Below, one piece after another: positions 4,217 through 21,640 of a stretch of 64,000 nucleotides of DNA. The notes beneath the pieces are model-generated. The model was given only the letters and a program-made list of their open reading frames with translations. It was not told the origin of the DNA and did not search any database. Location: the NCBI GenBank assembly GCA_016177705.1, contig JACOUT010000005.1, positions 158,374 through 222,373 of the forward strand, given 5' to 3'. A program made the translations under genes and the position numbers. Numbering within the stretch: the stretch's first letter is position 1; each line of letters begins with the position of its first letter. Source of the DNA: Deltaproteobacteria bacterium (GTDB lineage: Bacteria; Myxococcota; UBA727; VGSZ01).

Positions 4217-4241
4217 CGCCGAAGGTCAGCGCCCGTCGGTC

Positions 4242-5162
4242 TCAGGCCGGCGGCGGCTGCAGGCCGGTCTGGGTGGCGCGGCCGGCCTTGCGCACCGACG
4301 CCAGCTCGGCCTCGGCCTTGGCGACGCGCTTCTTCAGGCCCATGGAGCGCACCAGGCCGCCCATGCCGAAGGCGATGCCGAGCACGGTGACTGCCAAGAA
4401 GCCGACGGCGAACAGCTGCAAGCGCTGCCAAGAGCCCTTGTCGGCGAGCTTGAGCCCGAAGGCGGTGGCCGCCGCCGGCGCCTGCTCGACCGCGCTCGAC
4501 GAGACCACGTCGTCAATCAGGTTGCCGGGCGCGTTCTTCTTCATCACGACCGTGACGTTCGGCGGCCGCAGGTCCTCGATGGAGGCGGCGACCAGGTTGC
4601 GCACCTCGTCCTCCTTGACGGTGGCCGAGCCGCGCTCGTCGATGGCGTTGTAGACGATCGCGACCGACGCGGTGGCGGGCGGCGGCGGCGTGTCGAGGTC
4701 GCGCACGATGTCCTTGTCGGGCTGCACCACCGACACGTGCGCCTGCACGATGCCCGGCAGCGCCTTGAGCTTGCGCTCGATCTCGCCCTGCATGGCCATC
4801 AGGAACTTGGCCTTCTCCTCGCTCTTGGTCGGGATCAGCCCCCCGCCGCCCGGCGGATAGACCTCCTTCAGGCCCTGGCTGCGCGTGCGGGGGAGCTTGT
4901 TGGCGACCAACAGGCGCAGCGCGTCGTCGACGTCGACGTCCTTGACCAGCACGGCGAAGGTGACCACCCGGCCCTCTTCCTTGATCTTCTCGCCGTCGAT
5001 GCCCTTGGCGCGCAACACCACCAGGATCTCGTTGGCCTCGAGCTGGTCGAGGCCGCTGACGATGTCGTGGCTCGGGCCGCAGCCCGAGGCGAGCGCGACC
5101 GCGCAGGCGAGAAACACCCACAGCAGCCTTTGGGTGCGGGTGGTGGTCGGCAGGGAGGTCAT
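4242..5162 (-). CDS. SctJ/YscJ/PrgK (FliF-N)-family inner-membrane ring lipoprotein
   Basis: Starting at the ATG at 5162 the protein has a lipobox signal (LLWVFLACAVALASGC) and YscJ-like ring-building motifs (ILVVLRAKGIDGEKIKEEGRVVTFAVLV). A single C-terminal TM follows (LQLFAVGFLAVTVLGIAFGMGGLV). This is the classic SctJ architecture. Confidence 0.7.
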   Translation of the reverse strand: MTSLPTTTRTQRLLWVFLACAVALASGCGPSHDIVSGLDQLEANEILVVLRAKGIDGEKIKEEGRVVTFAVLVKDVDVDDALRLLVANKLPRTRSQGLKEVYPPGGGGLIPTKSEEKAKFLMAMQGEIERKLKALPGIVQAHVSVVQPDKDIVRDLDTPPPPATASVAIVYNAIDERGSATVKEDEVRNLVAASIEDLRPPNVTVVMKKNAPGNLIDDVVSSSAVEQAPAAATAFGLKLADKGSWQRLQLFAVGFLAVTVLGIAFGMGGLVRSMGLKKRVAKAEAELASVRKAGRATQTGLQPPPA

Positions 5163-5402
5163 GACCGTCCTCGTTCGGCGGGTGCGCCAGGTTGGGGCGC
5201 GCCCGGTGGGGAAGTCTCCGCCATCCGCCTTGCCCGTGTCGAGCGCCGGGCGCCGGGCAGGGCACCGACCGGAGGGGGTCCAGGACGTGAGACAAGCACA
5301 GTGAGACAGTGGGTGGCGCTTTTGCCGGGGAACAACTGCGCCGTTACACTTTGTTGAGATCAGCCGACCGCCCCCCGCTGATCCGACGGTGAGGTATCTG
5401 CC

Positions 5403-6287
5403 ATGCGCTGCACCTTCTCCCCCGAGTCTGGACCGCAACCCACCGCCTGCGGCATGGGCGCAGGGCGCGAGCGCTGCCTGTTCACCTCGGTGATGATGCT
5501 CGGAGGCCTGTTCGGGCTGATGGCCTCACCGGCCGTGCGGCTGCCGTTCGTCACCATGTTCGTGGTCATCGGCATCCCGCTCTTGACCTTCGCGGTCGCC
5601 GCTCCTTCGCGGCTCGGTCTGACGCGCGAGCTGGGGCTGCTGCTGCGCGGGCTCGAGGCCTCGCTGCTGTCGATGCTGCTCGCCGTGGTCGGCCGCTTCG
5701 ACGACGCGCGCGCCGTGCTGCTGCGCCAACGCGTGCGCGTCGAGAACGCGTACGCGTCGGGCACAGGGCCGCTCGCCCAGATCGTCGCCTCTGACCCGCT
5801 GCGCCTGCACCACCTGCGGCGGCTCGGCATGCTCGGCGCCGTGCTCGCGGTGGTCGCCGGCAACGCGCTGCCGCTGGTGTTCCCGCAAACCTACACCTGG
5901 GGCGACGACGCCGGCGCCATCGGCGTCTTCGTGCTCGACGTGCTCACCATTGGCCTCGCCTCGCGGCTGGTGAGCGAGCGCATGGCAGTCCGCCTGCTCG
6001 AGACCACGCACGCGCTTGGTGGCGGCACGGTGTGGGGCGCGCGCGCCCGCGTGGTGCCGCTCGCAACCATGCTCGGCACCGCGATGGGCGCCGTCGGCGC
6101 GCTGGTGGTGCTCGCCACCGCGGCGGCCGCCTCCGCCGTCGAGACCTCTTGGTTGTTCGAGACCGACATGGTCGCGGCCGGCCTGTGGTTCATCCGCGAG
6201 ACGGCGCCCTTGGCGCTGCCGCTCGGCGTCGGCATCGGTGGCGTCATGGGTGCCGCCGCGGGCTTGGCTCAGCCACCCCAGCGCTGA
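5403..6287 (+). CDS. Hypothetical polytopic membrane protein
   Basis: The ORF has several hydrophobic helices (e.g. FVTMFVVIGIPLLTFAVAAP). It is divergent from the SctJ-like gene. The start is uncertain and may be the internal Met near 5493. There is no family-level match. Confidence 0.4.
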   Translation: MRCTFSPESGPQPTACGMGAGRERCLFTSVMMLGGLFGLMASPAVRLPFVTMFVVIGIPLLTFAVAAPSRLGLTRELGLLLRGLEASLLSMLLAVVGRFDDARAVLLRQRVRVENAYASGTGPLAQIVASDPLRLHHLRRLGMLGAVLAVVAGNALPLVFPQTYTWGDDAGAIGVFVLDVLTIGLASRLVSERMAVRLLETTHALGGGTVWGARARVVPLATMLGTAMGAVGALVVLATAAAASAVETSWLFETDMVAAGLWFIRETAPLALPLGVGIGGVMGAAAGLAQPPQR

Positions 6288-6373
6288 CCTCTCGGTCACT
6301 ATTCGCGACGTGATCCCCGCCTCCGCACAGGCGGGGATTGTCGTTTTCGCTGCGCTGGGCGACAAAGACCTAC

Positions 6374-7213
6374 ATGAACCGCCATCGCGACGACGTCGAG
6401 CTGCTGTTGGACCACGTCCGGCCAGTGCAGGCGCGGACCCGCATGACGCGGCTGCCGTTCTTCAAGGTCGTGTTGATTACGCTGGAAGAGGCGGTGCGGG
6501 CCGTGGTCGGGCTTGCGCGCGGGCGCGCCAACCTGGAGCTCGGTGACGAGCTGCTGCGTGACTGGTGGCCGCGCGTGTTCCGCTCGGGCAACGCCAGCCT
6601 GCGCGCGCGCGGCCGCGCGCACTTCGTCCCCGGTCAGGCCTACGTAGTGATGTCGAACCACTGCTCGGCCCTCGACATCCCCGCCATCGTCGGGGCCGTG
6701 CCCGCCTCGGTGCGCATGGTGACCAAGCAGGAGCTGATCAACGTGCCCTTGTGGGGCTACGCCATGCACAAGTGCGGCTTCGTGCCGGTCGATCGCAAGA
6801 ACCGCGTCAAGGCCATCCACCAGCTCGACGAGGCCAAGGCGCTCCTGCGCAAGGGCGTCTGCGTGTGGATCTCGCCCGAGGGCACGCGCTCGCGCGACGG
6901 CAAGCTGGCGTCGTTCAAGAAGGGCGGCTTCCACCTCGCGTTCGACCTCGGCGTGCCCATCGTGCCGGCGTGGGTCGACGGCACCGAGGGCATCATCGCG
7001 GCCGCTCGCCTGAACGCGCGCGAGGACGGCGAGGTCGAGGTGCGCTTCGGCGCGCCCATCGCTACGGCCGGGCTGGGCAAGGCCGACATGAAGCCAATGA
7101 TGGCGGAGGTGCGCGCCCGCATCCTCGCCCTGTCGGGGCGCGCGGCGCAGGTCGACGCCGAGGTGGGCGCCGTCGCCGACGTCGTGCGGCCACGCGTGCG
7201 CAAGGCGAGCTGA
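6374..7213 (+). CDS. 1-acyl-sn-glycerol-3-phosphate acyltransferase (PlsC family)
   Basis: Carries the HXXXXD acyltransferase motif (SNHCSALD) and the PEGTRS box (ISPEGTRSRDG). The ATG is at 6374; the ORF caller started at the TTG at 6338. Confidence 0.75.
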   Translation: MNRHRDDVELLLDHVRPVQARTRMTRLPFFKVVLITLEEAVRAVVGLARGRANLELGDELLRDWWPRVFRSGNASLRARGRAHFVPGQAYVVMSNHCSALDIPAIVGAVPASVRMVTKQELINVPLWGYAMHKCGFVPVDRKNRVKAIHQLDEAKALLRKGVCVWISPEGTRSRDGKLASFKKGGFHLAFDLGVPIVPAWVDGTEGIIAAARLNAREDGEVEVRFGAPIATAGLGKADMKPMMAEVRARILALSGRAAQVDAEVGAVADVVRPRVRKAS

Positions 7214-7225
7214 GCCGAGCGCCGG

Positions 7226-8602
7226 CTACTTGCAGTCGAAGTCGAGCGCCGCGTCGCAGTTGCCGCGTCTGGCTGCCTCGCGCGGCGCCTCAGGCGGCGC
7301 CGCGCGAGGCGCCGCGCGCACCACGGCGAGCTGCGTGCGCGACCCCTTGGGCGCGCCGATGAGCGCCACGCCCGGCAGCTCGGGCATGGGCACGACGTGC
7401 ACGAAGGCCGGCACCTGCCAGACCGTGCTCGCGTCGAGCGCGAAGCCGTCCTTGGTGCCGAGGTGGAGCGCGGCGCGGCCGGGCTCGCCGAGGTCGAGCA
7501 GGTCGGGGGTGCCGTCGCCATCGAAGTCGACCGACACCACCGGCATGGCGCCATCCATGCGCCCCGCGCGCACGTCCGCGGTGGCGGTGAGCGCGAGCGG
7601 CGCGCCCTCGCCGACCTTCACGCGCAGCGGCACCTTGCCGGTCAGCAACACCCCCGAGAGGGACACCAGGCTGGTGTCCACCTCGGCGACGACCAGGGCG
7701 CGGCCGCGCGCGCCGATGGGCGCCACCAGGCCGTCCTTGCGCCACAGCAGGCGCGACGACGACAGCGGCGCGCGATCGCCACTGACGACGAAGGCGTCGC
7801 TCTTCTCCGGGATGGCGCCGTGCGTGACGCCGACCACGGCCTCGGCGCGTCGGTCGCCCTCGAGATCGAGCAGGCGCACGCGCAGGTCCGCGTCGCCGTC
7901 CGCGCCCACCGCGGCCGCCAGGTCGCGGCTGACCACCGGCGCAGCCGCGAGCGCAGCACCCTCGCGCGCGAACACGGTCACGCGGCCCTCGTGCACCAGC
8001 GCCAGGTCGAGGTCGCCGTCGCCGTCGATGTCGACGTCGAGGGTGCGGGGCGCGTACAACGACAGCGCCGCATCGTAGCCGCGCTCGGGGCGCAGGCCGC
8101 GGTGCACGCGCCCGGAGTAGGCGCGCGCGCGGTGCGTGACCGCGAGCGTGCGCGCGGCGCCGGCGCCCTTGACGGCGACGCCGTCGACGACCAGCACGCG
8201 CAGCTCGCCGCGCGCCGCGCCGCGCTTGCCGCACAGCTCGGCGACATAGAGCGCGTCCGCGTCCGGCACGGTGAACAGCGCGCGGCCGTCGAGCAGCCGG
8301 TCGCCGTCGACGTCGGTGAGGCCGGCGGCGTCCTGCAACACCACCTGATCGCCCTTCGCCCCCGGCAGCGGGCAGGCGTCCACGAACAGCGCTGCGGCCG
8401 ACACCGCCTGTGCGCCGCGCGTCGACAGGTCGCGCGCGTCGAGGCGCACCAGGCGGCGGCGCCCCCGCTCGGTGGCGCTGACCCAGATCTCGGGCGTGCC
8501 GCCGCCGACGTAGAGCGCGTCGACGGCGACGCCCGGGATCGAGACGGCCGGCGCGGGCGCCGCAACCAGGTGCGCGAGCAGGGAGAGCGCGGCGAGCGGC
8601 AC
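7226..8602 (-). CDS. Secreted FG-GAP/VCBS-like repeat protein
   Basis: It has an N-terminal signal peptide (MPLAALSLLAHLVAAPAPA). Repeated D-x-D-G-D-G calcium-binding-like loops are present (DVDIDGDGDLD, VDFDGDGTPD). Confidence 0.5.
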   Translation of the reverse strand: MPLAALSLLAHLVAAPAPAVSIPGVAVDALYVGGGTPEIWVSATERGRRRLVRLDARDLSTRGAQAVSAAALFVDACPLPGAKGDQVVLQDAAGLTDVDGDRLLDGRALFTVPDADALYVAELCGKRGAARGELRVLVVDGVAVKGAGAARTLAVTHRARAYSGRVHRGLRPERGYDAALSLYAPRTLDVDIDGDGDLDLALVHEGRVTVFAREGAALAAAPVVSRDLAAAVGADGDADLRVRLLDLEGDRRAEAVVGVTHGAIPEKSDAFVVSGDRAPLSSSRLLWRKDGLVAPIGARGRALVVAEVDTSLVSLSGVLLTGKVPLRVKVGEGAPLALTATADVRAGRMDGAMPVVSVDFDGDGTPDLLDLGEPGRAALHLGTKDGFALDASTVWQVPAFVHVVPMPELPGVALIGAPKGSRTQLAVVRAAPRAAPPEAPREAARRGNCDAALDFDCK

Positions 8603-8707: not shown

Positions 8708-9565
8708 ATGCGGCCCGTCCTCTTCGAGGTCTTCGGCGCGACCGTGCACAGCTACCCGACGCTGGTGGCGCTCGCCACCGTGGTCGGCGTGCTGGTGGGC
8801 GTGACGCTCGGGCGCAAAGACGGCAGAGCGTGGCGCGACCTCGTCGACCTCGCCATCGTGGTGGTGGTGGGCGCGTTGCTCGGCGCCAAGGTCTTTCACA
8901 CGGTGTTCGAGGCCGAGGGCCACCACCTCACCGACGGGCGCATCGCCCGCGGCGTGCTCGACCTCTTGGCCGACGATCCGTGGCACTGGGCGCGGCTGTT
9001 CGAGGCCGGCTACGTCTTCTACGGCGCCGTCGTGGGTGCGTTCCTCATCGGCTGGCTGTTCATGGTGCGGCGGGCGCTGCCCGACCGATGGAGCGTCGGC
9101 GACTACGCCACGCCCGCCCTGCTCGCCGGCATCTTCCTCGGTCGCGTCGGCTGCTACCTCGGTGGTTGCTGCTATGGCCGCGCCACCGACGTGCCGTGGT
9201 CCGTCACCTTCCCTGCTGGCCACGCCGCGGCCGGCGCGTCGGTCCACCCGGTGCAGCTCTACGACGCCGCCTTCGGGCTCGTGGGTCTCGTCGCCGTCGC
9301 GCTGCTCTACCGGCGGCGCCGCTTCGGCGGCGAGGCGCTGTGCGCGTTCTTCGTCGGCTACGCCGTCTATCGCTTTGCCACCGAGCTGGTGCGCGCGGAC
9401 GCCGACCGTGGCCTTTGGCTCGGTGGCACGCTGTCGACGTCGCAGTTGGTGGCGCTCGCCACCTTGCCGGTGGCGCTTTTCGCTTGGTGGCGCGGCCTCG
9501 CGCTGGCGCGTGCCGGCAAGGTGCGCAAGCCGAGCGAACCGCTCCCTCAGGAAGGCCCCTCATGA
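8708..9565 (+). CDS. lgt: Prolipoprotein diacylglyceryl transferase
   Basis: Translation from the ATG at 8708 shows the Lgt signature region (LGRVGCYLGGCCYGRATDVPWSVTFP) and a multi-TM profile. Confidence 0.85.
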   Translation: MRPVLFEVFGATVHSYPTLVALATVVGVLVGVTLGRKDGRAWRDLVDLAIVVVVGALLGAKVFHTVFEAEGHHLTDGRIARGVLDLLADDPWHWARLFEAGYVFYGAVVGAFLIGWLFMVRRALPDRWSVGDYATPALLAGIFLGRVGCYLGGCCYGRATDVPWSVTFPAGHAAAGASVHPVQLYDAAFGLVGLVAVALLYRRRRFGGEALCAFFVGYAVYRFATELVRADADRGLWLGGTLSTSQLVALATLPVALFAWWRGLALARAGKVRKPSEPLPQEGPS

Positions 9566-9984
9566 TCACCGTCGCCCTCGCCCTCACGCTCGCGGCCGGC
9601 CCCGATCCCTGCGCGGGCGTGGTCGACAGGACGCCGGCGTGCGTCGCCCCGGACGACGTCGCCGCCACGCTCGCGCCCGACGGCGGCGCCAAGGACGCCG
9701 CCGCCGGTGCAGCCGGCGTCATCAAGGCCGAGCAGATCCCGTCCAAGCTCGCGCTGGTCGCCGCCGCGCTCGGCATCGGCGGCACCGCCGCCATCAGCGC
9801 CACCTACGCGGTGACGCCGCCGGACGAGACCGCCGACGAGCGGCAGCTCCGCAAGGTGGTGCGCCTCGGCGGCGTGTCCGTGCTCGCGATCTCGGGGCTG
9901 GTCGGCGGCGCTGCGCTCGCGCTTGCGGTGTTCGATCCGTCGACGGGCGCGCCGCGCTACCGCTTGATCGAGGACAACGAATGA
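9562..9984 (+). CDS. Small hypothetical signal-peptide protein with a C-terminal TM
   Basis: Its ATG overlaps the lgt stop (ATGA). It has an N-terminal hydrophobic signal and a C-terminal TM (VLAISGLVGGAALALAVF). Confidence 0.45.
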   Translation: MITVALALTLAAGPDPCAGVVDRTPACVAPDDVAATLAPDGGAKDAAAGAAGVIKAEQIPSKLALVAAALGIGGTAAISATYAVTPPDETADERQLRKVVRLGGVSVLAISGLVGGAALALAVFDPSTGAPRYRLIEDNE

Positions 9985-10991
9985 GCGGCGCCCTGCTCGC
10001 GCTCGCGCTCGTCGTCGGGGCCGCGCCCGCCGCGCCCTCGGCGCCGCCCGCAGTGGTGCTGTTGCCGCTCGTCCCCGACGGCACCACCAGCGTCAAGCAG
10101 GCGCGCGGCATCACCGCCCAGTTGCGCGACGCGCTCGTGTCGGGGCCGACCGCCGATGGTCTGTGCACGATGCTGTCGGCCTCGAAGGACGACGACAAGC
10201 AAGCCGAGCGCTGCCGGCGCGACGCCGGCTGCCTCGGTGAGGTGGCGGCGCTGCGCGGCGCCGACGTGATGCTGGCGGGTGTGATCGCTCCCGGCGCCGA
10301 CGGCCTGGTGGTGTCGCTGGTGGCGGCAGCCCCGTCCGCCAAGGAGGCGCTGCGCCGGGTGGAGGTGACCTTGCGCGGCGATGCCGGCGATGCGCGGCGC
10401 ATCGATCGCGTGGTGCGCAGCGCCGTGGGGCCGCACGCGCTACGCGGCAAGCTGGCGCTGACCGGCGACGAGGGCGCCACCGTCACGCTCGATGGGGTGG
10501 CGCGCGGTGTGCTGCCGCTCACGGAGCCGCAGGCCAAACCGCTGTCCGTGCTGGTGGAGGGCGAGCACGACCTGCTCGTCGAGAAGCCCGGCTTCGAGCC
10601 CTATCGGCGCCCTGTGGCCATCGTCCATGCCGAGACCGTCGAGGTGAAGGCGACGCTGTTGCCGCTGACGAGCGGCGACCGCGCGCGCGTGCCCGACGGC
10701 GCCGGCGGCGCCGCCAGCGACGGGCCGCCGCTCGACGTGCTGGTGGTGGGCGGCGTGGGCGCCGGTTTGGTGGCGCTCGGCGCCGTCGCCGGCACGTGGA
10801 GCCTGCTCGACGCGCTGGCCGTGCAGGCGCGCGCAGAGGAGCAGCAGCTCCTGTTCCCGCGCGACGCCGGGCTGCTGCTGCGCGGCCAGATCCTGGCGTG
10901 GACGGCGGACGGCCTCTACCTCGTGGGCCTGGGCGCGCTCGGCGTCGCCGGCGCGCTCGCCTTGCTGACGCCCGCGGAGCCGCAGCCGTGA
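9981..10991 (+). CDS. PEGA-domain secreted protein
   Basis: ATGA-coupled to the previous gene. It has a signal peptide and a PEGA-like motif (LLVEKPGFEPYRRPVAI), with a C-terminal TM. Confidence 0.5.
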   Translation: MSGALLALALVVGAAPAAPSAPPAVVLLPLVPDGTTSVKQARGITAQLRDALVSGPTADGLCTMLSASKDDDKQAERCRRDAGCLGEVAALRGADVMLAGVIAPGADGLVVSLVAAAPSAKEALRRVEVTLRGDAGDARRIDRVVRSAVGPHALRGKLALTGDEGATVTLDGVARGVLPLTEPQAKPLSVLVEGEHDLLVEKPGFEPYRRPVAIVHAETVEVKATLLPLTSGDRARVPDGAGGAASDGPPLDVLVVGGVGAGLVALGAVAGTWSLLDALAVQARAEEQQLLFPRDAGLLLRGQILAWTADGLYLVGLGALGVAGALALLTPAEPQP

Positions 10992-12109
10992 CCGCGCTCG
11001 CGCGCGCGGCGCGCTCCTCGGTGGCGCTGGCGCTGATGGTGGCGCCGCTGCTGGTGAGCGCGCCAGGCTGTTTGTTCCTGCCCAACCTCGCCGGCCACGG
11101 CTACACGCCGTGCGACGACGACAGCGCCTGCCCGCCCGGACGCTTCTGCGACGAGTCGCTGTGCGCGCCGCCGCCGTGGCACGACCAGGCCTTCGGCAGG
11201 CGCCGCGCCGTCATCGTCGCCAACCCGGCCGCCTCGCCCATCCCGGCGGGCGCGGCCGTCCCCATCGTCGTGGGCGGTGAGACCGGCGTGCTCGCGCTCG
11301 CCGAGCTGGGCGCGTCCTTTCGCTTCACCGACTACGATCGCGCGAGCGCGTCGTGGCGCGTGGTGTCGGTCTACCTCGACCGCGAGAGCGACCGCTTCAC
11401 CGCCTGGATCCCCACGGCGCGCGAGATCCCGGCGGGGGGCAGCGCCCTGCTCGCCTTCGTCGAGAGCAACGCCGCTGACGGCCTGCCGCACGTGAGCGAA
11501 GATCCGGCGGCCACGTTCGCCCAGTGGCAGGCGTTCGACGCGCCGCTCGCCGACGACACCTGGTTCCAAAGCCCCGCCGGCGGTCCCGTGGTGCAAGACG
11601 GCATGGTCAACGTCGCCGACAACCAGGCGATCGTGCTGCAAGCGCCGCTGGTGCCGCCGGTGCTCGCCGTGCTGGTGGCGCGCATCAACGGCGCCACCTG
11701 CGACGAGGTCTTCTTGGGCCTGGTCGGCGACGACCGCGCGCTCTTCCAGGTGCCGCCCGAGGCGGGCATCTTCGTCGGCAGCAACCTCCAGGGCACGGCT
11801 CAGCTTGCACCGACGTCGGACAGCACGCCCACCGACGTCGGCGACGGGCTGACGGTGGTCAACGCCATGGCGCGCACCGTAGTGGCGATCGACGGCGGCG
11901 CCGTGCTGGTCGAGCACGCGGGCGCCACGGCCTTCGCCGACCCCGATCTCCGCCCGCCGTTCGGCGCCGACCCGCTCTACCTGGCGGTACAAGTCGGCGG
12001 CGCCTGCTCGGTCGACGTCGACGCGGTGTGGACCACGCCGCTGCCGCAGCCGTTCCCCACCGTCACCGTCGAGGCGCCGGTCGACTTCAACCTGGCGTAC
12101 GAGAACTGA
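10988..12109 (+). CDS. Hypothetical lipoprotein
   Basis: Likely starts at the GTG at 10988, overlapping the previous stop. It has a lipobox (LLVSAPGCLF). There is no recognisable family match. Confidence 0.45.
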   Translation: MTALARAARSSVALALMVAPLLVSAPGCLFLPNLAGHGYTPCDDDSACPPGRFCDESLCAPPPWHDQAFGRRRAVIVANPAASPIPAGAAVPIVVGGETGVLALAELGASFRFTDYDRASASWRVVSVYLDRESDRFTAWIPTAREIPAGGSALLAFVESNAADGLPHVSEDPAATFAQWQAFDAPLADDTWFQSPAGGPVVQDGMVNVADNQAIVLQAPLVPPVLAVLVARINGATCDEVFLGLVGDDRALFQVPPEAGIFVGSNLQGTAQLAPTSDSTPTDVGDGLTVVNAMARTVVAIDGGAVLVEHAGATAFADPDLRPPFGADPLYLAVQVGGACSVDVDAVWTTPLPQPFPTVTVEAPVDFNLAYEN

Positions 12110-12763
12110 GAGAGCTCATGCCGCAGAAGCCGCGCCTGCTCGTCGTGGAAGATGACAGCTCCATCGCCGCCGGGCTGCGCATGAACTTGCGGCACGAGGG
12201 CTTCGACGTGGTGGTGGCGGCCGACGGCGAGGCTGGGCTGCGCGAGGCGTTGGCCAACCCGCCCGACTTGATCTTGCTCGACGTCATGCTGCCGGTGATG
12301 AACGGCTTCGAGGTGTTGCGCGAGCTGCGCCGCCGCGGCTGCACCGCCGGGGTCATCATGCTCACCGCCAAGGGCCTCGAGGAAGACAAGGTGCTCGGCC
12401 TCGACCTCGGCGCCGACGACTACGTGCAGAAGCCCTTCGGCCTGCCCGAGTTGATCGCCCGCGTCCATGCGGTGCTGCGGCGCCGGCAGGCGCAGGCGCC
12501 GGCCACGGTCTGCTTCGACGATGTAGTCGTCGATCGCCATGCGCGCACCGTCACGCGCGCCGGTGCGCCGGTGGAGCTGTCGCCGCGCGAGATGTCGCTC
12601 CTGTTGTTCCTGGTCGAGCACCCCGGCCGCGCCGTCACGCGCAACGCGCTGCTCGAGGGCGCTTGGGGGCTCGACTACGAAGGCACCGAGCGCACCATCG
12701 ACAACTTCGTGGTCTCGCTCAGAAAGAAGCTCGAGCAGGACCCTGAGGCGCCGCGTCGCTTCG

Positions 12764-14335
<1,572 letters not shown>

Positions 14336-14416: not shown

Positions 14417-14998
14417 ATGCGTGAGCTTCGTACCATCCTCGTCGTCGACGACGAGCAGTTGTTCCTCCGCAGCATCCATCGCGTGTTGACGCACGATGGA
14501 TACCAGGTGCGCTTGGCCGAAGGCGTGGCCGAGGCCGCGGCCGCCATCGCCGAGGGCGTCGACCTCGTGCTCACCGACTTCCGGCTGCGCGACGGCTCGG
14601 GCCTCGACGTGGCGCGCGCCGCCGCTGCCGCCTCGCCGGCGCCGCTGGTGATCGCGTGGAGCGGCCGCGCCTCCGCCTCCGAGGCGTTCCAGCTCGCCCA
14701 AGCGGGTGTGCTCGAGTTTCTCGACAAACCGGTGTCGCTCTCGATGTTGCGCGCGGCGCTCGACCGGGTGCGCACCAGGCCGCCGCCGGCCTTCGACGCG
14801 CTGGTGGCGGCGCAGGTTGGCGTGACGCCGCTGCACGAGGTCGAGGGGCGCGTGCGCACCACCATGCTCACGCAGGCGCTCGCCTCGTCGAGCGAGAGCC
14901 GCTCGAAGACGGCGCGGCTGCTCGGCGTGTCGCGTCAGCTCGTGCAGAGCATGACCAACCGCGCCGTTCGGCCCAAGCGCATGAGCGGCGGCGAGTGA
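14417..14998 (+). CDS. Response regulator with receiver plus Fis-type HTH
   Basis: It has a receiver domain (ILVVDDEQLFLRSI...LVLTDFRL). A C-terminal HTH_8 domain is present (KTARLLGVSRQLVQSMT). Confidence 0.7.
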   Translation: MRELRTILVVDDEQLFLRSIHRVLTHDGYQVRLAEGVAEAAAAIAEGVDLVLTDFRLRDGSGLDVARAAAAASPAPLVIAWSGRASASEAFQLAQAGVLEFLDKPVSLSMLRAALDRVRTRPPPAFDALVAAQVGVTPLHEVEGRVRTTMLTQALASSSESRSKTARLLGVSRQLVQSMTNRAVRPKRMSGGE

Positions 14999-15001
14999 GC
15001 C

Positions 15002-15442
15002 TCAAATGCCCCCCAGGCGAGCGCGGATCGCCTGCAACAGCATCACCGACGAGAACGGCTTGGGGATGCACGGGCGCCCGCTCGCCGCCAGGAAGCTCTG
15101 GTGGTCGGGGCGGTGTTGATCGCCGGCCAGGAAGATGACGGTTGCGGCGACGTCGGGGAGCTTGGTCTGCAGCACCTGATAGAGCGCGACGCCGCCGATG
15201 CCGGGCATCGACAGATCGCACAGGATGGCGTCGTAGCGCGCGCCCGCTTCCAGCTCGGCGAGCGCCGCGCGCGCGTCGGTGCGGGTGGTCAGCAGGACCG
15301 TGGAGCCGAGCACGCGCCGGACCGCGCGGCAGATCATCTCCTCGTCGTCGATGAGCAAGACGCGCGGCTTGGCCGCCGTCCGCTCTGCTGCCGCACTGTC
15401 GCCAGCGGGAGGGTGCGGCGGTGACTTGTCGCGCTCCGACAC
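15002..15442 (-). CDS. Single-domain response regulator (CheY-like)
   Basis: It has a receiver domain (RVLLIDDEEMICRAV...AILCDLSMPGIGG). The start is assigned to the GTG at 15442. The longer ORF is probably an over-extension. Confidence 0.55.
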   Translation of the reverse strand: MSERDKSPPHPPAGDSAAAERTAAKPRVLLIDDEEMICRAVRRVLGSTVLLTTRTDARAALAELEAGARYDAILCDLSMPGIGGVALYQVLQTKLPDVAATVIFLAGDQHRPDHQSFLAASGRPCIPKPFSSVMLLQAIRARLGGI

Positions 15443-15614
15443 GGTGCCCCCAACGCCGCCACGCCGCAGCGCTCGCGCCAGCGTACGGTGGCCGGCACGC
15501 TCGCGCGACTGTCTCGCGCACCTGATCGTCGACGGACAGGCGCTCGTCCGACGCAAAAATATTTGCACTAGCCACGCGAGATTGTGGCGCCAGCATTCGC
15601 CCTTCGAGGAACAC

Positions 15615-17384
15615 ATGCACCCACGAGATCACCGCGCTGCGCGCACGGTGCAGCCTGCCGCTGTTGGCGCGCCCGACCAGCTCGCGCCCCGGCGCACGCA
15701 CCAGCGCGCCGCGCGCCTGTTGGTCGAGCAGCTCAAGGCGAGCGGCATCGACACCATCTTCGGCCTGCCCGGCGGCGCGGTCGGCCCGCTGTATGACGCG
15801 CTGCTCGACGAGCCCAGCCTGCGCGTCATCACCACGCGTCACGAGGCAGGCGCCATGTTCGCCGCCGCCGGCTACGCCTGGGCGACGGAGCGGCCGGCCG
15901 CCGTCATCGTCACCTCGGGGCCGGGCGCGCTCAACTGCATGACCGGCATCGCTTCGGCGCGCTGCGACTCGCTGCCGGTGATCGTCATCGCTGGCGAGGT
16001 GGCGCGCACGTCGTTTGGCAAGGGCGCGTTGCAGGAGGGCAGCCCCTACCACCTCGGCATCACCGCCATGGCGCGCTGCGCCGCCAAGCTGGCCGTCGAC
16101 GTGCCGAGCGCGGAGTCGCTGCCCTGGCTGTTGCGCCAGGCCGTCACCACCGCGACCACCGGCCGGCGTGGGCCGGTGTTCTTGAGCGTGCCGCTCGACG
16201 TCTCGATGGCCGAGGTGCCGCGCCAGGGCGCTTTGGTCGCGCCCCCGTCCGCGCCTGCGCTCGGCTACGGCGAGGTGCTCGACCGCCTGGCGCGCACGCT
16301 CGAGCGCGCAAAGCGGCCGGCGATCCTCGCCGGCTCGGGCGTGCGCTGGGGCCGCGGCCCCGAGCGCCTGCGTGCGCTCGCCGAGCGCTTGCAGGTGCCG
16401 GTGATGACCACGCCCAAGGCCAAGGGCGTGTTCCCCGAGAGCCACCCGCTCTCGCTCGGCGTGTTCGGCTACGGCGGGCACCCGTCGGCCCAGGCGTACG
16501 CGAGCACGGCGCGCATCGACGTCTTGTTGGCGCTCGGCAGTGGGCTCTCCGATCCGGCGACCAACGGCTGGAGCCCGCTGCTCGCCGCCACCGAGCACCT
16601 GGTGCACGTCGACATCGACGCGGGCCAGATCGGCAGGAGCTACCCGGTGTCGCTCGGCGTCGTCGGGCGCGCCGAGGACGTGCTCGAGGAGCTGCTCGCG
16701 CGCCTGCCGCCGGGCGACCGCGAGCTGCGCACCTTCGGCGTCACGCATCACTCGTTCGCACCTGCGACGGGGCAGGGCCTGGTCTCGCCGGTGGTCGCGC
16801 TCGAGGCGGTGCAATGGAGCATGCCCGCCGACACGCTCTACACGTGCGACATCGGGCAGCACCTGCACTTCGCGACGCACACCCTGCGGCTCGACCACCC
16901 GCGCTCCTTCCTCTCGATGACCGGGCTCGCCTCGATGGGCAGCGCGATCCCGGCCGCCGTCGGAGCCGCGGTGGGCGACACGCGGCGGCCGGTGGTCGCC
17001 ATCTGTGGCGACGGTGGCTACCTGATGTCGCTAGCGGAGCTGGCCACCGCGGCGCAGGCGCGGCTGCCGGTCACGGTGGTCGTGCTCGATGACCGCCGTT
17101 ACAGCATGGTCGAGCTCGGCCACCTGGCCCATTTCGGCCGCACTCCTGGCTTCCCAAGCGACGAGGTCGACATCGCGGCGCTCGCTCGGGGCGCCGGCGC
17201 CGAGGCCGTCGAGGTCGCGGCAGCGTCGCTCGACTTCGTCGGCGAGGTGCTGGCCCGGCCCGCGTCCGGGCCGCGCGTGCTCCACGTGCGCATCGATCCC
17301 GCCGTGCGCATGCCGAGCGACCAACGATCGAAGGACATGATCTCCAAGCTCGGAACTACCCGCGAACAAGGAGCTGCAACATGA
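15615..17384 (+). CDS. Thiamine-diphosphate-dependent enzyme (acetolactate synthase large subunit-like)
   Basis: It has the N-terminal TPP Pyr domain (IDTIFGLPGGAVGPLYDAL, TSGPGALNC). The central domain and the C-terminal TPP-binding GDG motif are present (ICGDGGYLMSLAELATA). Confidence 0.8.
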   Translation: MHPRDHRAARTVQPAAVGAPDQLAPRRTHQRAARLLVEQLKASGIDTIFGLPGGAVGPLYDALLDEPSLRVITTRHEAGAMFAAAGYAWATERPAAVIVTSGPGALNCMTGIASARCDSLPVIVIAGEVARTSFGKGALQEGSPYHLGITAMARCAAKLAVDVPSAESLPWLLRQAVTTATTGRRGPVFLSVPLDVSMAEVPRQGALVAPPSAPALGYGEVLDRLARTLERAKRPAILAGSGVRWGRGPERLRALAERLQVPVMTTPKAKGVFPESHPLSLGVFGYGGHPSAQAYASTARIDVLLALGSGLSDPATNGWSPLLAATEHLVHVDIDAGQIGRSYPVSLGVVGRAEDVLEELLARLPPGDRELRTFGVTHHSFAPATGQGLVSPVVALEAVQWSMPADTLYTCDIGQHLHFATHTLRLDHPRSFLSMTGLASMGSAIPAAVGAAVGDTRRPVVAICGDGGYLMSLAELATAAQARLPVTVVVLDDRRYSMVELGHLAHFGRTPGFPSDEVDIAALARGAGAEAVEVAAASLDFVGEVLARPASGPRVLHVRIDPAVRMPSDQRSKDMISKLGTTREQGAAT

Positions 17385-18472
17385 GTGACACCATAGCTAC
17401 CCACGGGACGAACGCCGCGATCCTCGGGCTCGGCATCCATCTACCGAACGAGGTACGCGCCAACTCGTGGTGGCCCATTGGCACCGTCGACCGATGGCGC
17501 CAGCGCGCGTCGGCGAAGATCTCCGATGGACGCGCCGACGAAACCGCGCGCATGACGCCGAACCAGCGCCGCGTGCTCGAGGCGATGGCGCAAGAGCGTG
17601 ACGACCCGTTTCGCGGTGCGCGCGAGCGCCGCGTGATGGACCCGGCCCAGCGCTCGTCCGACATCGAGACGCTGGCGGCACGTGAGGCCATACAGCAAGC
17701 GGGCGTCGCGCCGGCCGACCTCGACTTCGTGTTGGTGCAGTCGGCGGTGCCGGACTTCCTCAACACACCCAACGCCGCCTTCGTGCACCAGAAGCTCGGC
17801 CTCAAGGACGCGTGCTTCAGCCTGCAGACCGAGGGCATGTGCAACTCGTTCCTGCTGCACCTGACGCTCGCCGACAAGCTGCTGCGCGGCGGCATGGGCA
17901 AGCTCGGGCTCATCGTGCAGTCGTGCGGCATGTCGCCGACGCTCGATCCCGAGGAGCCGCACTCCGCCTGGTTCGGCGACGCGGCCAGCGCGGCCGTCGT
18001 CGGCTTGGTCGAGGGGCGCGGCCTGCTGTCGCAGGCGCACGGCACCGACAGCTCGCTGTCACCTTCCATCGTCTACGGCGTGCCTGGCGGGCGCTGGTTC
18101 GACGCAGGGCGCACGGTGCCGTACCTCGAGAACCAGAAGAACGGCTTCCTGATGCTGCTCAACTCGGCGGACCTGGTGGCCAACGGCATGCGCCAGGCGC
18201 TGGCGCCGCTCGGCATGAGCGCGGAGGACGTCGAGTTCTACGGCGCCCACCAGGCGACGCCCTGGTTCCGCCGGGTGACGCAGCAGGCGGCCGGCATGAC
18301 GAACGCGCGCTTCGTCGACACCTTCCCCTGGGCGGCCAGCGTGGTCGGCTGCAACGTCCCACTCGGTCTCGCCGTCGCGGCGCGCGAGGGCATGCTCAAG
18401 AGCGGCATGCTGGTGGGCGCATTTTCGGGGTCGCCCGGAGTAACCTGGACCGCGGCGGTCTACCGCTGGTGA
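17381..18472 (+). CDS. KAS-III (FabH)-like condensing enzyme
   Basis: It is ATGA-coupled to the ThDP enzyme. It has a thiolase-fold KAS III pattern with candidate Cys (EGMCNSF), His (GAHQATPWF) and Asn (GCNVPLG) catalytic positions. Confidence 0.7.
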   Translation: MSDTIATHGTNAAILGLGIHLPNEVRANSWWPIGTVDRWRQRASAKISDGRADETARMTPNQRRVLEAMAQERDDPFRGARERRVMDPAQRSSDIETLAAREAIQQAGVAPADLDFVLVQSAVPDFLNTPNAAFVHQKLGLKDACFSLQTEGMCNSFLLHLTLADKLLRGGMGKLGLIVQSCGMSPTLDPEEPHSAWFGDAASAAVVGLVEGRGLLSQAHGTDSSLSPSIVYGVPGGRWFDAGRTVPYLENQKNGFLMLLNSADLVANGMRQALAPLGMSAEDVEFYGAHQATPWFRRVTQQAAGMTNARFVDTFPWAASVVGCNVPLGLAVAAREGMLKSGMLVGAFSGSPGVTWTAAVYRW

Positions 18473-18518
18473 GGAGGGAGCGGCCATCGTCGACACGAGC
18501 ACCATCGAGGACGACGCC

Positions 18519-18998
18519 GTGACCGTGCGCGCCGCGGCCAACGCGCTCTACGTGCGGTGGCGCGCCACGCCCACGATCGCCCGGCTGCAGGGGATCCTCG
18601 AGCGCGTTGAGTCGGTCGCGCGGACGTACGGCCGGCCCATCGCCTTCATCATGGAGCAAGACGCGAGCGCGGGCGCGCCCGATGCCGAGTTCCGGCGACG
18701 TTCGGTCGAGGCGGTCGACTCTGTCGGCCATGCGATCGCCTGCCTCGCGATGGTGACGCGGGCGAGCGGGCTGCGCGCCGCAATCCTGCGCAGCGTGCTC
18801 ACCGGCATCACCTTCCTCGCCCGGCGGCAGTTCCCAGTCAGGGTCTTTGCCGGCCTCGACGAGGAGGCTCAGAACTGGATCGTCGGCCACGCCGACGGCG
18901 ATGAGCACGCGCGCTCCGAGCTGCAGGCGCTGCTGCGCGAGGTCGAGCAGGAGCACACGCAAGCGAGCGCCGCCTCAGGCCCCGCCGAGCGGTCGTAG
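18519..18998 (+). CDS. Hypothetical protein
   Basis: It follows the KAS-III-like gene on the same strand, 47 nt downstream, as a GTG-start ORF. There is no recognisable domain. Confidence 0.35.
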   Translation: MTVRAAANALYVRWRATPTIARLQGILERVESVARTYGRPIAFIMEQDASAGAPDAEFRRRSVEAVDSVGHAIACLAMVTRASGLRAAILRSVLTGITFLARRQFPVRVFAGLDEEAQNWIVGHADGDEHARSELQALLREVEQEHTQASAASGPAERS

Positions 18999-20229
18999 CC
19001 CACCCTCGCTTACCGCGTACCAGCCGGGCGCCGCGTCCGCCTTGACGCGCGCGAGCACGCGCCCCGGCTCGCCCACCAGCTTGACGCCGCGCGGGATGGC
19101 GCGACCGGCCGCGATCGCCACGTCGGCGCCGACGAACACGTCGGGCCCGAAGGCGGCGCCGCACGGCAGCTCGCCGGCCTCGCGCAAGGTGCCGCCGTCG
19201 TCGACCTTGACCTGACCGCCCGGGGTCAGGTCCTGCGGCCGAGCGAACGAGGTGAGCGCGCAGCGCGGCCCGATGACGCACGCCTGGACGCCGTTGGCGC
19301 ATGCGTCGGTGTCGCCGAAGGTGACGCACGCCGACAGCGACGAATTGAGCGAGACGAAGGTGCGCGGGCCGAGCGCGCAGCCGTTCAGGTGCGCGCGCTG
19401 CTCGATGACGCAGCCGTCGCCCACCACCGAGTTCCGCAGGTACGCATAGGCGCCAACGCTGACGTCGTCGCCGAGCACGCAGGCCTCCACCGTCGCGGTC
19501 GGGTGGATCGAGACGCGCTTGCCGGTGAACACCAGGCGCCCGGGCAGCGCGCGCAGCGTCGCCGCCCGCGACAGACGAAGCGCGGGTAGGCACCGCAGCG
19601 AGGTGCGAACCGGCGTTGCGGCGGCGCGGTCCAGCAGCGCCACCTGCGGCGCCAGGTGCCCCGCGCGCAGCACGTGCAGCCAGTGACGCACCCGTAGCGC
19701 CACGGTGGACGTGAGCGGCCACGCGAGCGTGGGCGAGGCGCTGCCGAGGATGTGGCGCGGCACCGGCACCTCGAGCAGGCGCTCGCGGTAGCGCGGCGCC
19801 ACCCAGGCGTCCGCGCCGAGCGCGAACAGCTCCCGCGCCGTGGCGCGCGCGCCGGCGGGCACCATGGCGACGTCGAACGCCGCCCGCCCCTCGCCGTCGA
19901 TCGGCACGTCTTGCAGCGGCAGCGTCAGCTCGAGCAGGCGGGAGCGCGGCAGGCACAGGCGCGCGGTAGCGGCGCGGTCGGCGGTGGCGCGCAAGAAGCC
20001 GCGCAGCGCGCGGCGGGTCACCCAGACGTCGTCTCGCAGCACCAACGCCGGTCCTTCGACTAGCACCTCGTCGCCGAGCGCCGCGGGCAACGCGCCGGCG
20101 ACCAGCGGCGCCAGATCGCGTAGCGCGGCGGCGCGCGCCTGGGCGAGCGTGCCCGCGCCGATGGGTACCTCGTCGACGGCGCAATCGAACGGCGCGATGC
20201 GCGCGCCGCTCGCCACCAGCACGACCCTC
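18975..20229 (-). CDS. Nucleotidyltransferase with a C-terminal left-handed beta-helix (hexapeptide-repeat) domain
   Basis: Its GTG at 20229 overlaps the glmU stop (GTGA). The C-terminal half is hexapeptide-rich (VGAYAYLRNSVVGDGCVIEQRAHLNGCALG...). The 900-aa ORF in this frame is a read-through artefact. Confidence 0.55.
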
Positions 20230-21640
20230 ACGGCTTCTTCTGGGCGCGTTCGGCGTTCTTCGCGCGGATACCGGCGGCGTAGCCGGCCTTGTTCTGCTGC
20301 CGGCCGCGCCCGATGGCCAGCGCGTCCTCGGGCACGTCGGCGGTGATGGTGCTGCCCGCCGCCACGTAGGCGCCGCGCGCGATCGCGACCGGCGCCACCA
20401 GCGTGGCGTTGCTGCCGACGAATACCTCGTCGCCGATGACGGTGCGGTGCTTGCCGATGCCGTCGTAATTGCAGGTGATGGTGCCGGCGCCGATGTTGGC
20501 CTTGGCGCCGATGTCGGCATCGCCGAGGTAGGCCAGGTGGTTCGCCTTGCTGCCACGGCCGAGCCGCGCCTTCTTCATCTCGACGAAGTTGCCGACGTGC
20601 GCGCCCTCCTCCAGCACGGCGCCGGGGCGCAGGCGCGCGAACGGGCCGACCACGCACCCTTTGCCGATGCGTGCACCGTCGCACACCGAGTAGGGGTGGA
20701 CGACGGTGCCGGTGGCGACCGTGGTGTCGTGCAGCACGCAGCCGGCGCCGATGTGCACCTCGCTCTCGAGCGCGGTGGCGCCGGTGAGCACCGCGTGTGC
20801 CCCCACGGTGACGTCGATGCCGAAGCGAACCTGTGCGTCGACCGCCACGGTGGCTGGGCTCAGGAAGGTGACGCCGTCGAGTTGGGCGCGCCGCACCACG
20901 CGCGCCTGCAAGGCCGCGGCGGCCTCGCCGAGCTGGGCGCGGTCGTTCACGCCCATGGTCTCGAGCGCACCCACCTCGAGCGCGGGCACGCTGCGGCCGT
21001 CCGCGCGCGCCAGCGCCACCAGATCGGTCAGGTACAGCTCGGCCTGTGCGTTCTTGGGCTCGAGCCGAGCGAGCGCCGAGCGCAGCCACGCCGCGTCGGC
21101 GGCGTACACGCCGGGGTTGGTCTCCGTGACGCGCCGCTGCTCCGCCGTGGCGTCCCTCTCCTCGACGATGCGCTCCGGCAGCCCGTCGTCGCCGCGCAGC
21201 ACGCGGCCGTAGCCGCGCGGCTCGTCGAGCCGCGTGGTCCAGAGCGCCAACGGCGCGGCGGTGCGCGCACGCAGCTCGAGCAGCGACGTCAGCGACTCGG
21301 CTGTGAGCAAGGGACAATCGCCGTAGACGATCAGCACCGAGCCCGACCACTCGCCGAGCGCCTCGAGGCCGACTCGCGCCGCGTGCCCGGTGCCGAGCTG
21401 CTGTTGCTGCACGGCGGTGCGCACGCTCGCGGGGAAGCGCTGCGCGAGCAGCGGCCTGACCGCGTCCGCGCCGTGGCCGACGACGACCACCACCGGGTCG
21501 GCGCCGGCAGCGAGCGCCGCCTCGACCGGCCAGGCCACCAGCGGCTTGCCGCACGCCGGGTGCAGCACCTTGGGCAGCGCGCTCTTCATGCGCGTGCCTT
21601 TGCCGGCGGCGAGGACCAGGGCGGCGACGTTGCGCTCCAT
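20228..21640 (-). CDS. glmU: Bifunctional UDP-GlcNAc pyrophosphorylase / GlcN-1-P acetyltransferase
   Basis: From the ATG at 21640 the protein opens LVLAAGKGTRMKS (nucleotidyltransferase motif). LbH repeats follow (ANIGAGTITCNYDG). Confidence 0.85.
   Translation of the reverse strand: MERNVAALVLAAGKGTRMKSALPKVLHPACGKPLVAWPVEAALAAGADPVVVVVGHGADAVRPLLAQRFPASVRTAVQQQQLGTGHAARVGLEALGEWSGSVLIVYGDCPLLTAESLTSLLELRARTAAPLALWTTRLDEPRGYGRVLRGDDGLPERIVEERDATAEQRRVTETNPGVYAADAAWLRSALARLEPKNAQAELYLTDLVALARADGRSVPALEVGALETMGVNDRAQLGEAAAALQARVVRRAQLDGVTFLSPATVAVDAQVRFGIDVTVGAHAVLTGATALESEVHIGAGCVLHDTTVATGTVVHPYSVCDGARIGKGCVVGPFARLRPGAVLEEGAHVGNFVEMKKARLGRGSKANHLAYLGDADIGAKANIGAGTITCNYDGIGKHRTVIGDEVFVGSNATLVAPVAIARGAYVAAGSTITADVPEDALAIGRGRQQNKAGYAAGIRAKNAERAQKKP

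Follow-up and report, generated by a model that had tools for sequence, protein, structure and literature searches.

A ThDP enzyme and KASIII-like enzyme gene pair associated with two-component regulators in Myxococcota, a candidate synthase of acylated acyloins or butenolides

What small molecule is made when the gene for a thiamine diphosphate (ThDP)-dependent enzyme runs directly into that for a ketoacyl synthase III (KASIII)-like enzyme, with response regulators and histidine kinases close by? The question is raised by a 64,000-nt stretch of DNA from a Deltaproteobacteria bacterium of the Myxococcota (assembly GCA_016177705.1, contig JACOUT010000005.1, positions 158,374 to 222,373), referred to here in its full length as the window. 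The gene pair was shown to be conserved and co-inherited, and its proteins fall by sequence into a clade separate from acetohydroxyacid synthase (AHAS), from the fatty-acid enzyme FabH, and from cyanobacterial pairs that stand in for the furanolide enzymes CybE and CybF, so that it would be a sister family and not CybEF itself. By analogy with the CybEF and NzsH/NzsJ pathways, we consider it rather probable that the pair is a dedicated two-enzyme synthase of an acylated acyloin- or butenolide-type small molecule, that it is controlled by phosphorelays, and that its product is most likely regulatory or signalling. The enzyme logic as such is already known; new are the clade, its altered active site, the tie to kinases and regulators, and the fusions of receiver domains to the ThDP enzyme.

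Genes were called by third-position GC content (GC3) together with Pfam matches, in a window of 72% G+C. Three open reading frames (ORFs) were confirmed on the plus strand with GC3 values of 0.90, 0.91, and 0.91, namely, a ThDP-dependent carboligase-like enzyme of 589 aa (15615-17384; ATG start with GAGGAA upstream; Pfam TPP_enzyme_N, M, and C), a KASIII-like thiolase-fold enzyme of 363 aa (17381-18472; AAGGAG 8 nt upstream; ACP_syn_III and ACP_syn_III_C), and a 159-aa protein of unassigned function (18519-18998; GTG start). The stop codon of the ThDP gene overlaps the start codon of the KASIII-like gene as ATGA (17381-17384, plus strand), within the sequence GCTGCAACATGAGTGAC. An earlier note on this DNA, made from the sequence alone, had described this overlap correctly and had called the two genes translationally fused; they are separate ORFs in different frames, translationally coupled and not fused. 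L043, L044, and L051, which are closer relatives, also have this 4-nt overlap.

The ThDP protein is predicted to belong to the acetolactate synthase superfamily without being an AHAS. It matched the three Pfam domains with E values of 1e-40 (TPP_enzyme_N), 1e-39 (M), and 4e-33 (C), scored 346.9 bits against the AHAS model TIGR00118 (cut-off 538.35), and stayed under every NCBIfam AHAS cut-off, PRK models included, the other AHAS models being missed by a factor of 2 to 4. The RFDDR motif through which AHAS contacts flavin adenine dinucleotide (FAD) is absent; 'garfddrai' of Escherichia coli AHAS I (6lpi) aligns to 'gsglsdpatn', which reads SGLSDP, and the FAD-binding residues that the earlier note had raised as a point to check are lost in this motif. 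The core of the superfamily is present, with the catalytic Glu (RHEAG) and the segment CGDGGY...LDD, corresponding to the GDG...NN motif with NN reading DD, and these features would place the protein in the superfamily, not specifically among AHAS. The best solved relatives were BbmA (8x3x, 346 bits) and CsmA (261 bits), followed by E. coli AHAS I (259 bits). In BbmA (PDB 8x3x, 8x3y, and 8xod) and CsmA (8x3z), as in the window protein, GS(S/G)L(G/S)D..TN.W replaces the AHAS RFDDR. BbmA is 36% identical to the window ThDP protein and 29% identical to the CybE-like stand-ins, to which it is no closer than the window protein is, and no biochemical account of BbmA or CsmA was found in the literature searched. 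Neither ilvN/ilvH nor ilvC is among the neighbors of the pair, which comprise response regulators, a kinase, and the 159-aa ORF.

The KASIII-like protein likewise is predicted not to be a housekeeping FabH. Its Pfam matches were both weak (ACP_syn_III, E 4e-10; ACP_syn_III_C, E 5.5e-10), and its scores against the FabH models TIGR00747 (104.8, cut-off 292.1) and NF006829 (107.9, cut-off 249) fell under the cut-offs. In the alignment to the E. coli FabH sequence, from which all active-site positions were read, Cys154 corresponds to FabH Cys112 and His290 to His244, and Ser320 stands in place of Asn274. The arginines that dock the acyl carrier protein (ACP) in FabH are lost, with Arg36 replaced by Ala and Arg249 by Trp, and an insertion of about 40 residues relative to FabH ends in a DPFRG motif. 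Because Asn274, which serves malonyl decarboxylation, and the ACP-docking arginines are lost, ordinary malonyl-ACP condensation is argued against. The Asn is also absent from KASIII-like acyltransferases such as CerJ and DpsC. The AlphaFold (AF2) model (pLDDT 93.6) is a complete thiolase/KASIII fold that matches the folds of FabH, PqsD, and OleA at 17-24% identity, and no solved structure exceeded 24%. With both the AHAS and the FabH cut-offs missed and ilvN and ilvC not nearby, the view of the earlier note that this is not an ilv/fab, fatty-acid-type arrangement is upheld.

The family of the window pair is termed type B here and the CybEF stand-ins type A. A survey of 124 full-length type-B KAS representatives (among P0182-P0327) revealed that the nucleophile Cys is kept in 77% and absent in about 23% (Ser in 7; Phe, Gly, Ala, Asn, Gln, or Thr in 21), and that the catalytic His is kept in 84% and absent in 16%. 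The third triad position, FabH Asn274, is variable (S/N/H/T/G, mostly Ser), and Trp occupies the Arg249 position in 113 of the 124. Positions W31, D75, G79, R83, G199-D200, H290, and W363 were invariant across 40% sequence divergence.

The window KAS protein is 100% identical to HYS27_10540 of a Deltaproteobacteria/Myxococcota metagenome-assembled genome (MAG). About 40 homologues at 38-89% identity were retrieved by protein search (alignment A1), and when 1.84 billion cluster representatives were searched with a profile, the family came to at least 150 clusters at 50% identity (E < 1e-69). For the ThDP protein, more than 120 homologues at 46% identity or more were collected. The locus scan, with one genome per species, yielded 41 loci, nearly all from Myxococcota MAGs; the exceptions were Sorangium sp. 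So ce1099, S. cellulosum So0157-2, Minicystis rosea, and the actinomycete Kribbella deserti. The ThDP gene lies directly upstream of the KAS gene on the same strand in 32 of the 36 assessable loci, is adjacent in another orientation in three, and is absent within 10 kb in one, a pairing far beyond chance. Across the type-B loci the ThDP partner is 36-50% identical. The pairwise identities of the two proteins co-varied over 35 genomes (r = 0.60, reached by 0 of 2000 permutations), which fits co-inheritance, with a contribution also from shared species phylogeny.

In K. deserti (L026:2445-11756), the ThDP and KAS genes are preceded by genes for an HMGL-like (LeuA-type) protein, a fused aconitase-like (LeuCD-type) protein, and an Iso_dh (LeuB-type) protein, and are followed by a hydrolase gene. 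The pair itself is a hybrid of a type-A-like ThDP protein and a type-B KAS protein, the latter 57% identical to that of L001 and with Ser at the nucleophile position. The LeuA/LeuCD/LeuB-like set for 2-oxo-acid chain elongation beside the pair fits 2-oxo-acid substrates, and the locus has the appearance of a chimeric cluster for a small molecule, obtained by horizontal transfer and drawing on an elongated 2-oxo acid.

Gene order across the type-B loci was taken from precomputed annotation and our own mapping. The usual order is an HTH_17-REC regulator of about 200 aa, the ThDP gene, the KAS gene, a hybrid kinase (HisKA-HATPase-REC-HATPase, about 900-1050 aa), and a REC-HATPase protein (about 390 aa). 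Of 38 assessable loci, 30 have the hybrid kinase directly downstream of the pair, and in about 19 the REC-HATPase gene comes next. At its N-terminus, the hybrid kinase carries a conserved cytoplasmic domain of about 200 residues without a Pfam family (A3, e.g., L036:11058-11660), with the pattern MKEVSC...ERIDW...FY.W...G.G.Q.F.C...GY.PC.EFF...MPR.LG. Four of 26 members gave weak Arabinose_bd matches, the best at E 0.0038, with no other Pfam match above noise; a profile search returned no PDB relative of the domain, and no consistent hydrophobic segment was seen in it. The domain is therefore taken to be a soluble sensor domain that presumably binds a ligand.

The ThDP enzyme itself is in some loci joined to a signalling domain. 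An N-terminal receiver domain is present on 7 of the best 120 ThDP homologues, and such fusion genes lie at L001:5803-7983 and L024:6541-8769. The fused receiver of L001 has the usual acidic pocket, phospho-acceptor Asp, and conserved Lys, as read from its sequence. We are not aware of any description of a ThDP carboligase gated by phosphorylation. The receiver-ThDP proteins P0152, P0153, P0157, P0165, P0167, P0168, and P0178 are 691-742 aa long, and one of them is labelled Acidobacteriota. On the JGI contig of P0165, a cytochrome P450 gene lies between the REC-ThDP gene and an inverted KAS gene, and a 161-aa unannotated gene, which may be a split-off sensor domain, precedes a shortened hybrid kinase of 806 aa.

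Synteny this regular and fusion this repeated are not attributable to two-component genes being generally abundant in myxobacteria; they indicate that phosphorelays control the pathway, that the pathway feeds into them, or both. The weight given by the earlier note to the neighboring regulators was therefore justified, on account of the conserved kinase and regulator synteny together with the receiver-ThDP fusions. From the embedding in two-component operons and the receiver fusions we infer that the product, which that note had thought could be a signal, is most likely regulatory or signalling and not a bulk metabolite or an antibiotic.

Two pathways of similar logic have been characterized. 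CybE forms a beta-keto acid that bears an alpha-hydroxy group from two 2-oxo acids in furanolide biosynthesis, and CybF, the 'furanolide synthase' annotated as 3-oxoacyl-ACP synthase, carries out O-acylation from a coenzyme A (CoA) thioester with decarboxylation and closure of the butenolide (PMC12395478, PMC13288894), a chemistry that has been established in vitro. In the CybE/CybF pathways to cyanobacterin, nostoclide, maculalactone, and enhygrolide, as in the window, the ThDP gene is directly followed by a KASIII-like gene of about 360 aa. Nostoclides, which are furanolides of the sister family, are cell-density-dependent mediators in Nostoc (PMC9324945) and provide a precedent for a regulatory product. 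In carbazole biosynthesis, the KASIII-like NzsJ/CqsB1 catalyzes decarboxylative condensation of an acid of the kind that CybE also forms, made here by NzsH/CqsB3, with 3-hydroxybutyryl-ACP (PMC7466098); the two-step logic is the one proposed for the window pair. The combination of ThDP carboligation with a KASIII-type step, on which the earlier note had built its suggestion, finds acyloin and butenolide precedents in CybE/CybF and NzsH/NzsJ; the OleA-, PqsD-, or pyrone-type Claisen condensations that it also listed are not specifically indicated.

On this model, the ThDP enzyme of the window would decarboxylate one 2-oxo acid, and the acyl-anion equivalent so formed would attack the keto group of another, giving, as expected from the enzyme's family, an acetolactate-type alpha-hydroxy-beta-keto acid (an acyloin acid). 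The KASIII-like enzyme would accept an acyl group on Cys154 from a primary-metabolism acyl-CoA or acyl-ACP and transfer it to this intermediate with loss of CO2, yielding an O- or C-acylated acyloin that could close to a butenolide or a hydroxy-diketone. Synthesis would be gated by phosphorylation, as the two-component operons and receiver-ThDP fusions suggest.

The closest alternative is that the pair is simply the CybE/CybF orthologue, making a tri-substituted butenolide of the enhygrolide or cyanobacterin type as an antibiotic or allelochemical, with the regulators incidental. The myxobacteria Plesiocystis and Enhygromyxa make enhygrolide-type furanolides and carry co-localized cybE/cybF homologues (PMC8777810). 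The comparison was made with stand-ins, cyanobacterial plasmid pairs from Calothrix brevissima NIES-22 (plasmid2, L045:6040-9053) and Gloeothece verrucosa PCC 7822 (plasmid Cy782201, L049:7208-11223), whose CybEF identity is by proxy, with gene sizes and identities that match the published figures. Both are stand-alone pairs without other cyb genes; WD-40, TPR, and NB-ARC proteins flank them, and in Gloeothece a methyltransferase follows. Together with the second pair of the Nannocystaceae contig L041 and two metagenomic proteins, they make up type A. Gene order and sizes are common to the window pair and the proxies (Calothrix, Gloeothece, and the second L041 pair), and so are the DPFRG insertion, the Trp in place of Arg249 that follows the His/Asn position, and the C-terminal RW(G). 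The insertion and the Trp, common to both types, point to one KASIII-like branch apart from FabH.

Within that branch the two types nevertheless separate. Identities within type A are 41-54% for KAS and 46-62% for ThDP, and within type B (the window pair, L001, and the first L041 pair) 40-57% and 36-48%, whereas between the types they drop to 25-31% and 29-33%. For the Plesiocystis homologues, the published values of 39% identity to Tolypothrix CybF and 44% to CybE (PMC8777810) fit type A and not type B. On L041 a type-B pair (5694-8492) and a type-A pair (8879-11780) stand in tandem, and the types are hence paralogues. The active-site motifs differ as well, with Cys / N-T-P-T-A-W / G-N in type A, Cys / H-Q-A-T-P-W / A-S in the window, and Cys / H-Q-x-x-x-W / mostly Ser throughout type B. 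Unlike the CybEF pathways, the window pair has no tailoring genes and neither an ammonia lyase nor an acyl-CoA ligase gene within about 15 kb on either side, although the published myxobacterial cybEF homologues likewise are without the latter two (PMC8777810). Conserved two-component neighbors and receiver fusions are a further difference of the type-B family from CybEF, and the kinase synteny is too regular for incidental regulators. Orthology with CybEF was accordingly judged unlikely.

It is less probable still that the ThDP enzyme makes the product by itself, a free acyloin or alpha-hydroxyketone in the manner of CAI-1-type signals, with the KAS protein non-catalytic or acting differently, e.g., as a scaffold, a thioesterase-like editor, or a regulatory subunit. 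The representatives without a nucleophile Cys and the highly variable third triad position would suit such a role, and it is the ThDP enzyme, not the KAS protein, to which the receiver is fused. Most representatives, the window KAS included, do keep the Cys and the His, along with many other invariant positions; the model of the thiolase fold is confident and complete, and the KASIII-like partner is catalytic in both characterized precedents.

A carbazole-type NzsH/NzsJ/NzsI cassette, with the 159-aa protein as the ring-closing cyclase, is very improbable. The three-gene layout resembles NzsH/NzsJ/NzsI superficially and homologous triads have been reported in Sorangium, yet no NzsI-like cyclase stands beside the Sorangium So0157-2 copy of the pair. 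NzsI/CqsB2, which closes the carbazole ring, is a Bet v1-like cyclase of the ARO/CYC fold (PMC7466098), and the 159-aa protein is predicted to be a beta-alpha protein with weak SpoIIAA-like hints at most; no Bet v1-like match to it was found, with a low-confidence model as the query. The 159-aa protein is, moreover, absent from nearly all relatives. NzsJ/CqsB1 is described in the literature as a fatty-acid-type KASIII that retains its catalytic residues, a description to which the window KAS, with its altered triad, would not conform. The carbazole pathway also needs an ACP, a second KASIII, and an aminotransferase besides the Bet v1-like cyclase, and neither these nor a prenyltransferase lie near the window pair.

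The housekeeping explanation, an acetolactate synthase for branched-chain amino acids beside a FabH that starts (branched-chain) fatty-acid synthesis, can draw on NCBIfam, where acetolactate synthase large subunit and FabH are the best named matches, and on source annotations of relatives as 'acetolactate synthase' and '3-oxoacyl-ACP synthase III'. The pair shares with AHAS and FabH the superfamilies, folds, GDG motif, catalytic Glu, and thiolase-fold Cys and His. The explanation is effectively refuted and the least probable of all, given that every curated cut-off is widely missed, RFDDR, Asn274, and Arg36/Arg249 are lost, the insertion is present, ilvN/ilvC and fab genes are not nearby, and the distribution is patchy, mostly in Myxococcota, and tied to signalling genes.

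Several observations weigh against the preferred reading of the pair as a phosphorelay-controlled synthase of an acylated acyloin or butenolide. Every chemical step in it would hold by analogy, and the CybEF comparison was made with proxies. An acyl-CoA ligase, an ACP, and an ammonia lyase are not encoded beside the pair, so that no neighboring gene points to the acyl donor. Given the members without the Cys or the His, part of the KAS family may be inactive or act in another way. The kinase synteny speaks of regulation of or by the pathway, not of the product as the ligand of the kinase. No signalling genes neighbor the pair in the genomes of the cultured Sorangium and Minicystis; So0157-2 has a TetR regulator upstream of it and So ce1099 unrelated genes downstream. 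Finally, the window itself lacks the hybrid kinase, which carries most of the signalling argument.

A more far-reaching form of the preferred reading is possible but doubtful. The type-B pair could be the synthase of an unrecognized class of myxobacterial signals, acylated acyloins or butenolides, that would arise in the cytoplasm and be read by the N-terminal domain of the hybrid kinase, with phosphorylation switching the synthase through the receiver-ThDP fusions; this would amount to a self-contained synthase-sensor circuit widespread in Myxococcota, of which the window would hold a rewired version whose sensing side has passed to a SpoIIAA-like 159-aa protein together with a PAS kinase and a REC-HTH regulator. 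In systems such as cqsA-cqsS (CAI-1 alpha-hydroxyketones), lqsA-lqsR-lqsS, phcBSR, and AfsA-type gamma-butyrolactone synthesis, synthase genes are co-transcribed with genes for a (hybrid) histidine kinase and response regulators, and the products are either alpha-hydroxyketones or butenolide/butyrolactone-type molecules that arise by acyl transfer and subsequent ring closure. These signal synthases belong to other families (the pyridoxal phosphate-dependent CqsA, the methyltransferase PhcB, and AfsA), and the kinases are membrane sensors, in contrast to the type-B hybrid kinase with its soluble N-terminal domain. We know of no counterpart to the receiver-fused ThDP enzyme in the cqs, lqs, phc, or AfsA systems.

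Myxobacteria are a standard model of bacterial multicellular behavior, yet for few of their diffusible small-molecule signals is a biosynthetic gene known. A family of at least 150 clusters that couples a known butenolide/acyloin route to kinases and response regulators offers a target in the search for a new signal and its receptor, and it extends the ThDP plus KASIII-like pathway type beyond furanolides and carbazoles. Should the signalling reading be wrong, the pair would still be an unexplored source of biocatalysts and of small natural products of the acyloin or butenolide kind. No description of this clade was found in the literature searched.

No orthologue of the hybrid kinase is encoded anywhere in the window, where the pair is followed instead by the 159-aa ORF and a convergent gene. 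Upstream, the embedding among response regulators and histidine kinases seen in the earlier note was confirmed. An OmpR-type response regulator gene (12103-12804, plus strand; Response_reg and Trans_reg_C) adjoins that of a PAS-HisKA-HATPase histidine kinase (12764-14335, minus strand; HATPase_c, PAS, and HisKA), followed by a REC-HTH response regulator gene (14417-14998, plus strand; Response_reg, E 1.8e-18) and a receiver-only response regulator gene (15002 to about 15442, minus strand; Response_reg, E 3.5e-15) that is divergent from the ThDP gene and whose start codon is uncertain among several candidates, GTG at 15442 being the likeliest. The PAS kinase and the REC-HTH regulator are the upstream partners of the pair in the window's sub-lineage. 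In L051 the same local order was found, with the minus-strand PAS kinase (50% identical), REC-HTH (55%), ThDP (65%), KAS (68%), and a homologue of the 159-aa protein, and the closer relatives L043 and L044 have the same arrangement downstream. The sub-lineage thus keeps a rewired but conserved module of PAS kinase, REC-HTH regulator, and 159-aa protein. Membership of the OmpR-type regulator in the module is not established, as no orthologue was found in L051, whose corresponding flank differs. A divergent single-domain receiver gene also precedes the REC-ThDP fusion gene in L001; the receiver-only gene of the window is not present in L051.

The 159-aa protein, which the earlier note had counted as part of the biosynthetic cassette, does not belong to the family-wide module. 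It is restricted to the sub-lineage of the window and absent from 41 other loci, and in most relatives its slot is held by the hybrid kinase. Homologues of 40-72% identity occupy the same position in relatives, which marks the ORF as a real gene; four full-length homologues are 62-100% identical, and a partial one in L051, also at this position, is 40% identical over 82 residues. The protein evolves faster than the two enzymes. It had no match in Pfam or NCBIfam. Its AF2 model is weak (pLDDT 64) with an alternating beta-alpha repeat topology, and Foldseek against the PDB gave no fold relative at E < 0.01 (query TM-score at most 0.41). Weak but concordant SpoIIAA-like hints came from 2q3l (TM-score 0.41-0.50) and from PF11964 in the homologue P0059 (E 0.07, 14 bits, with Pfam E values up to 10 considered). 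The idea that it is a detached N-terminal domain of the kinase was rejected, with no BLASTP match and an hhalign probability of 0.4%.

An Rfam scan of the whole window gave no match to a TPP or other riboswitch, and a consensus scan of 14900-19300 gave none to a promoter or terminator. There is no larger biosynthetic cluster around the pair, the window flanks being free of polyketide synthase, nonribosomal peptide synthetase, or other cluster genes; they encode sulfite/nitrite reductase, K+ channel, FliF/FliG-like, acyltransferase, PEGA, FG-GAP, GlmU, and LbH proteins. The gene convergent with the 159-aa ORF encodes the LbH protein (18978-20231, minus strand) and lies directly downstream of a glmU-like gene (20231 to about 21550, minus strand), and the 3' ends of the LbH gene and the 159-aa ORF overlap by 24 nt (18975-18998). 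Farther upstream of the pair, at 3206-5438 on the minus strand, two adjacent genes encode a weak FliG_M match and a YscJ/FliF-family protein and adjoin genes for a TrkA-type K+ channel and the sulfite/nitrite reductase.

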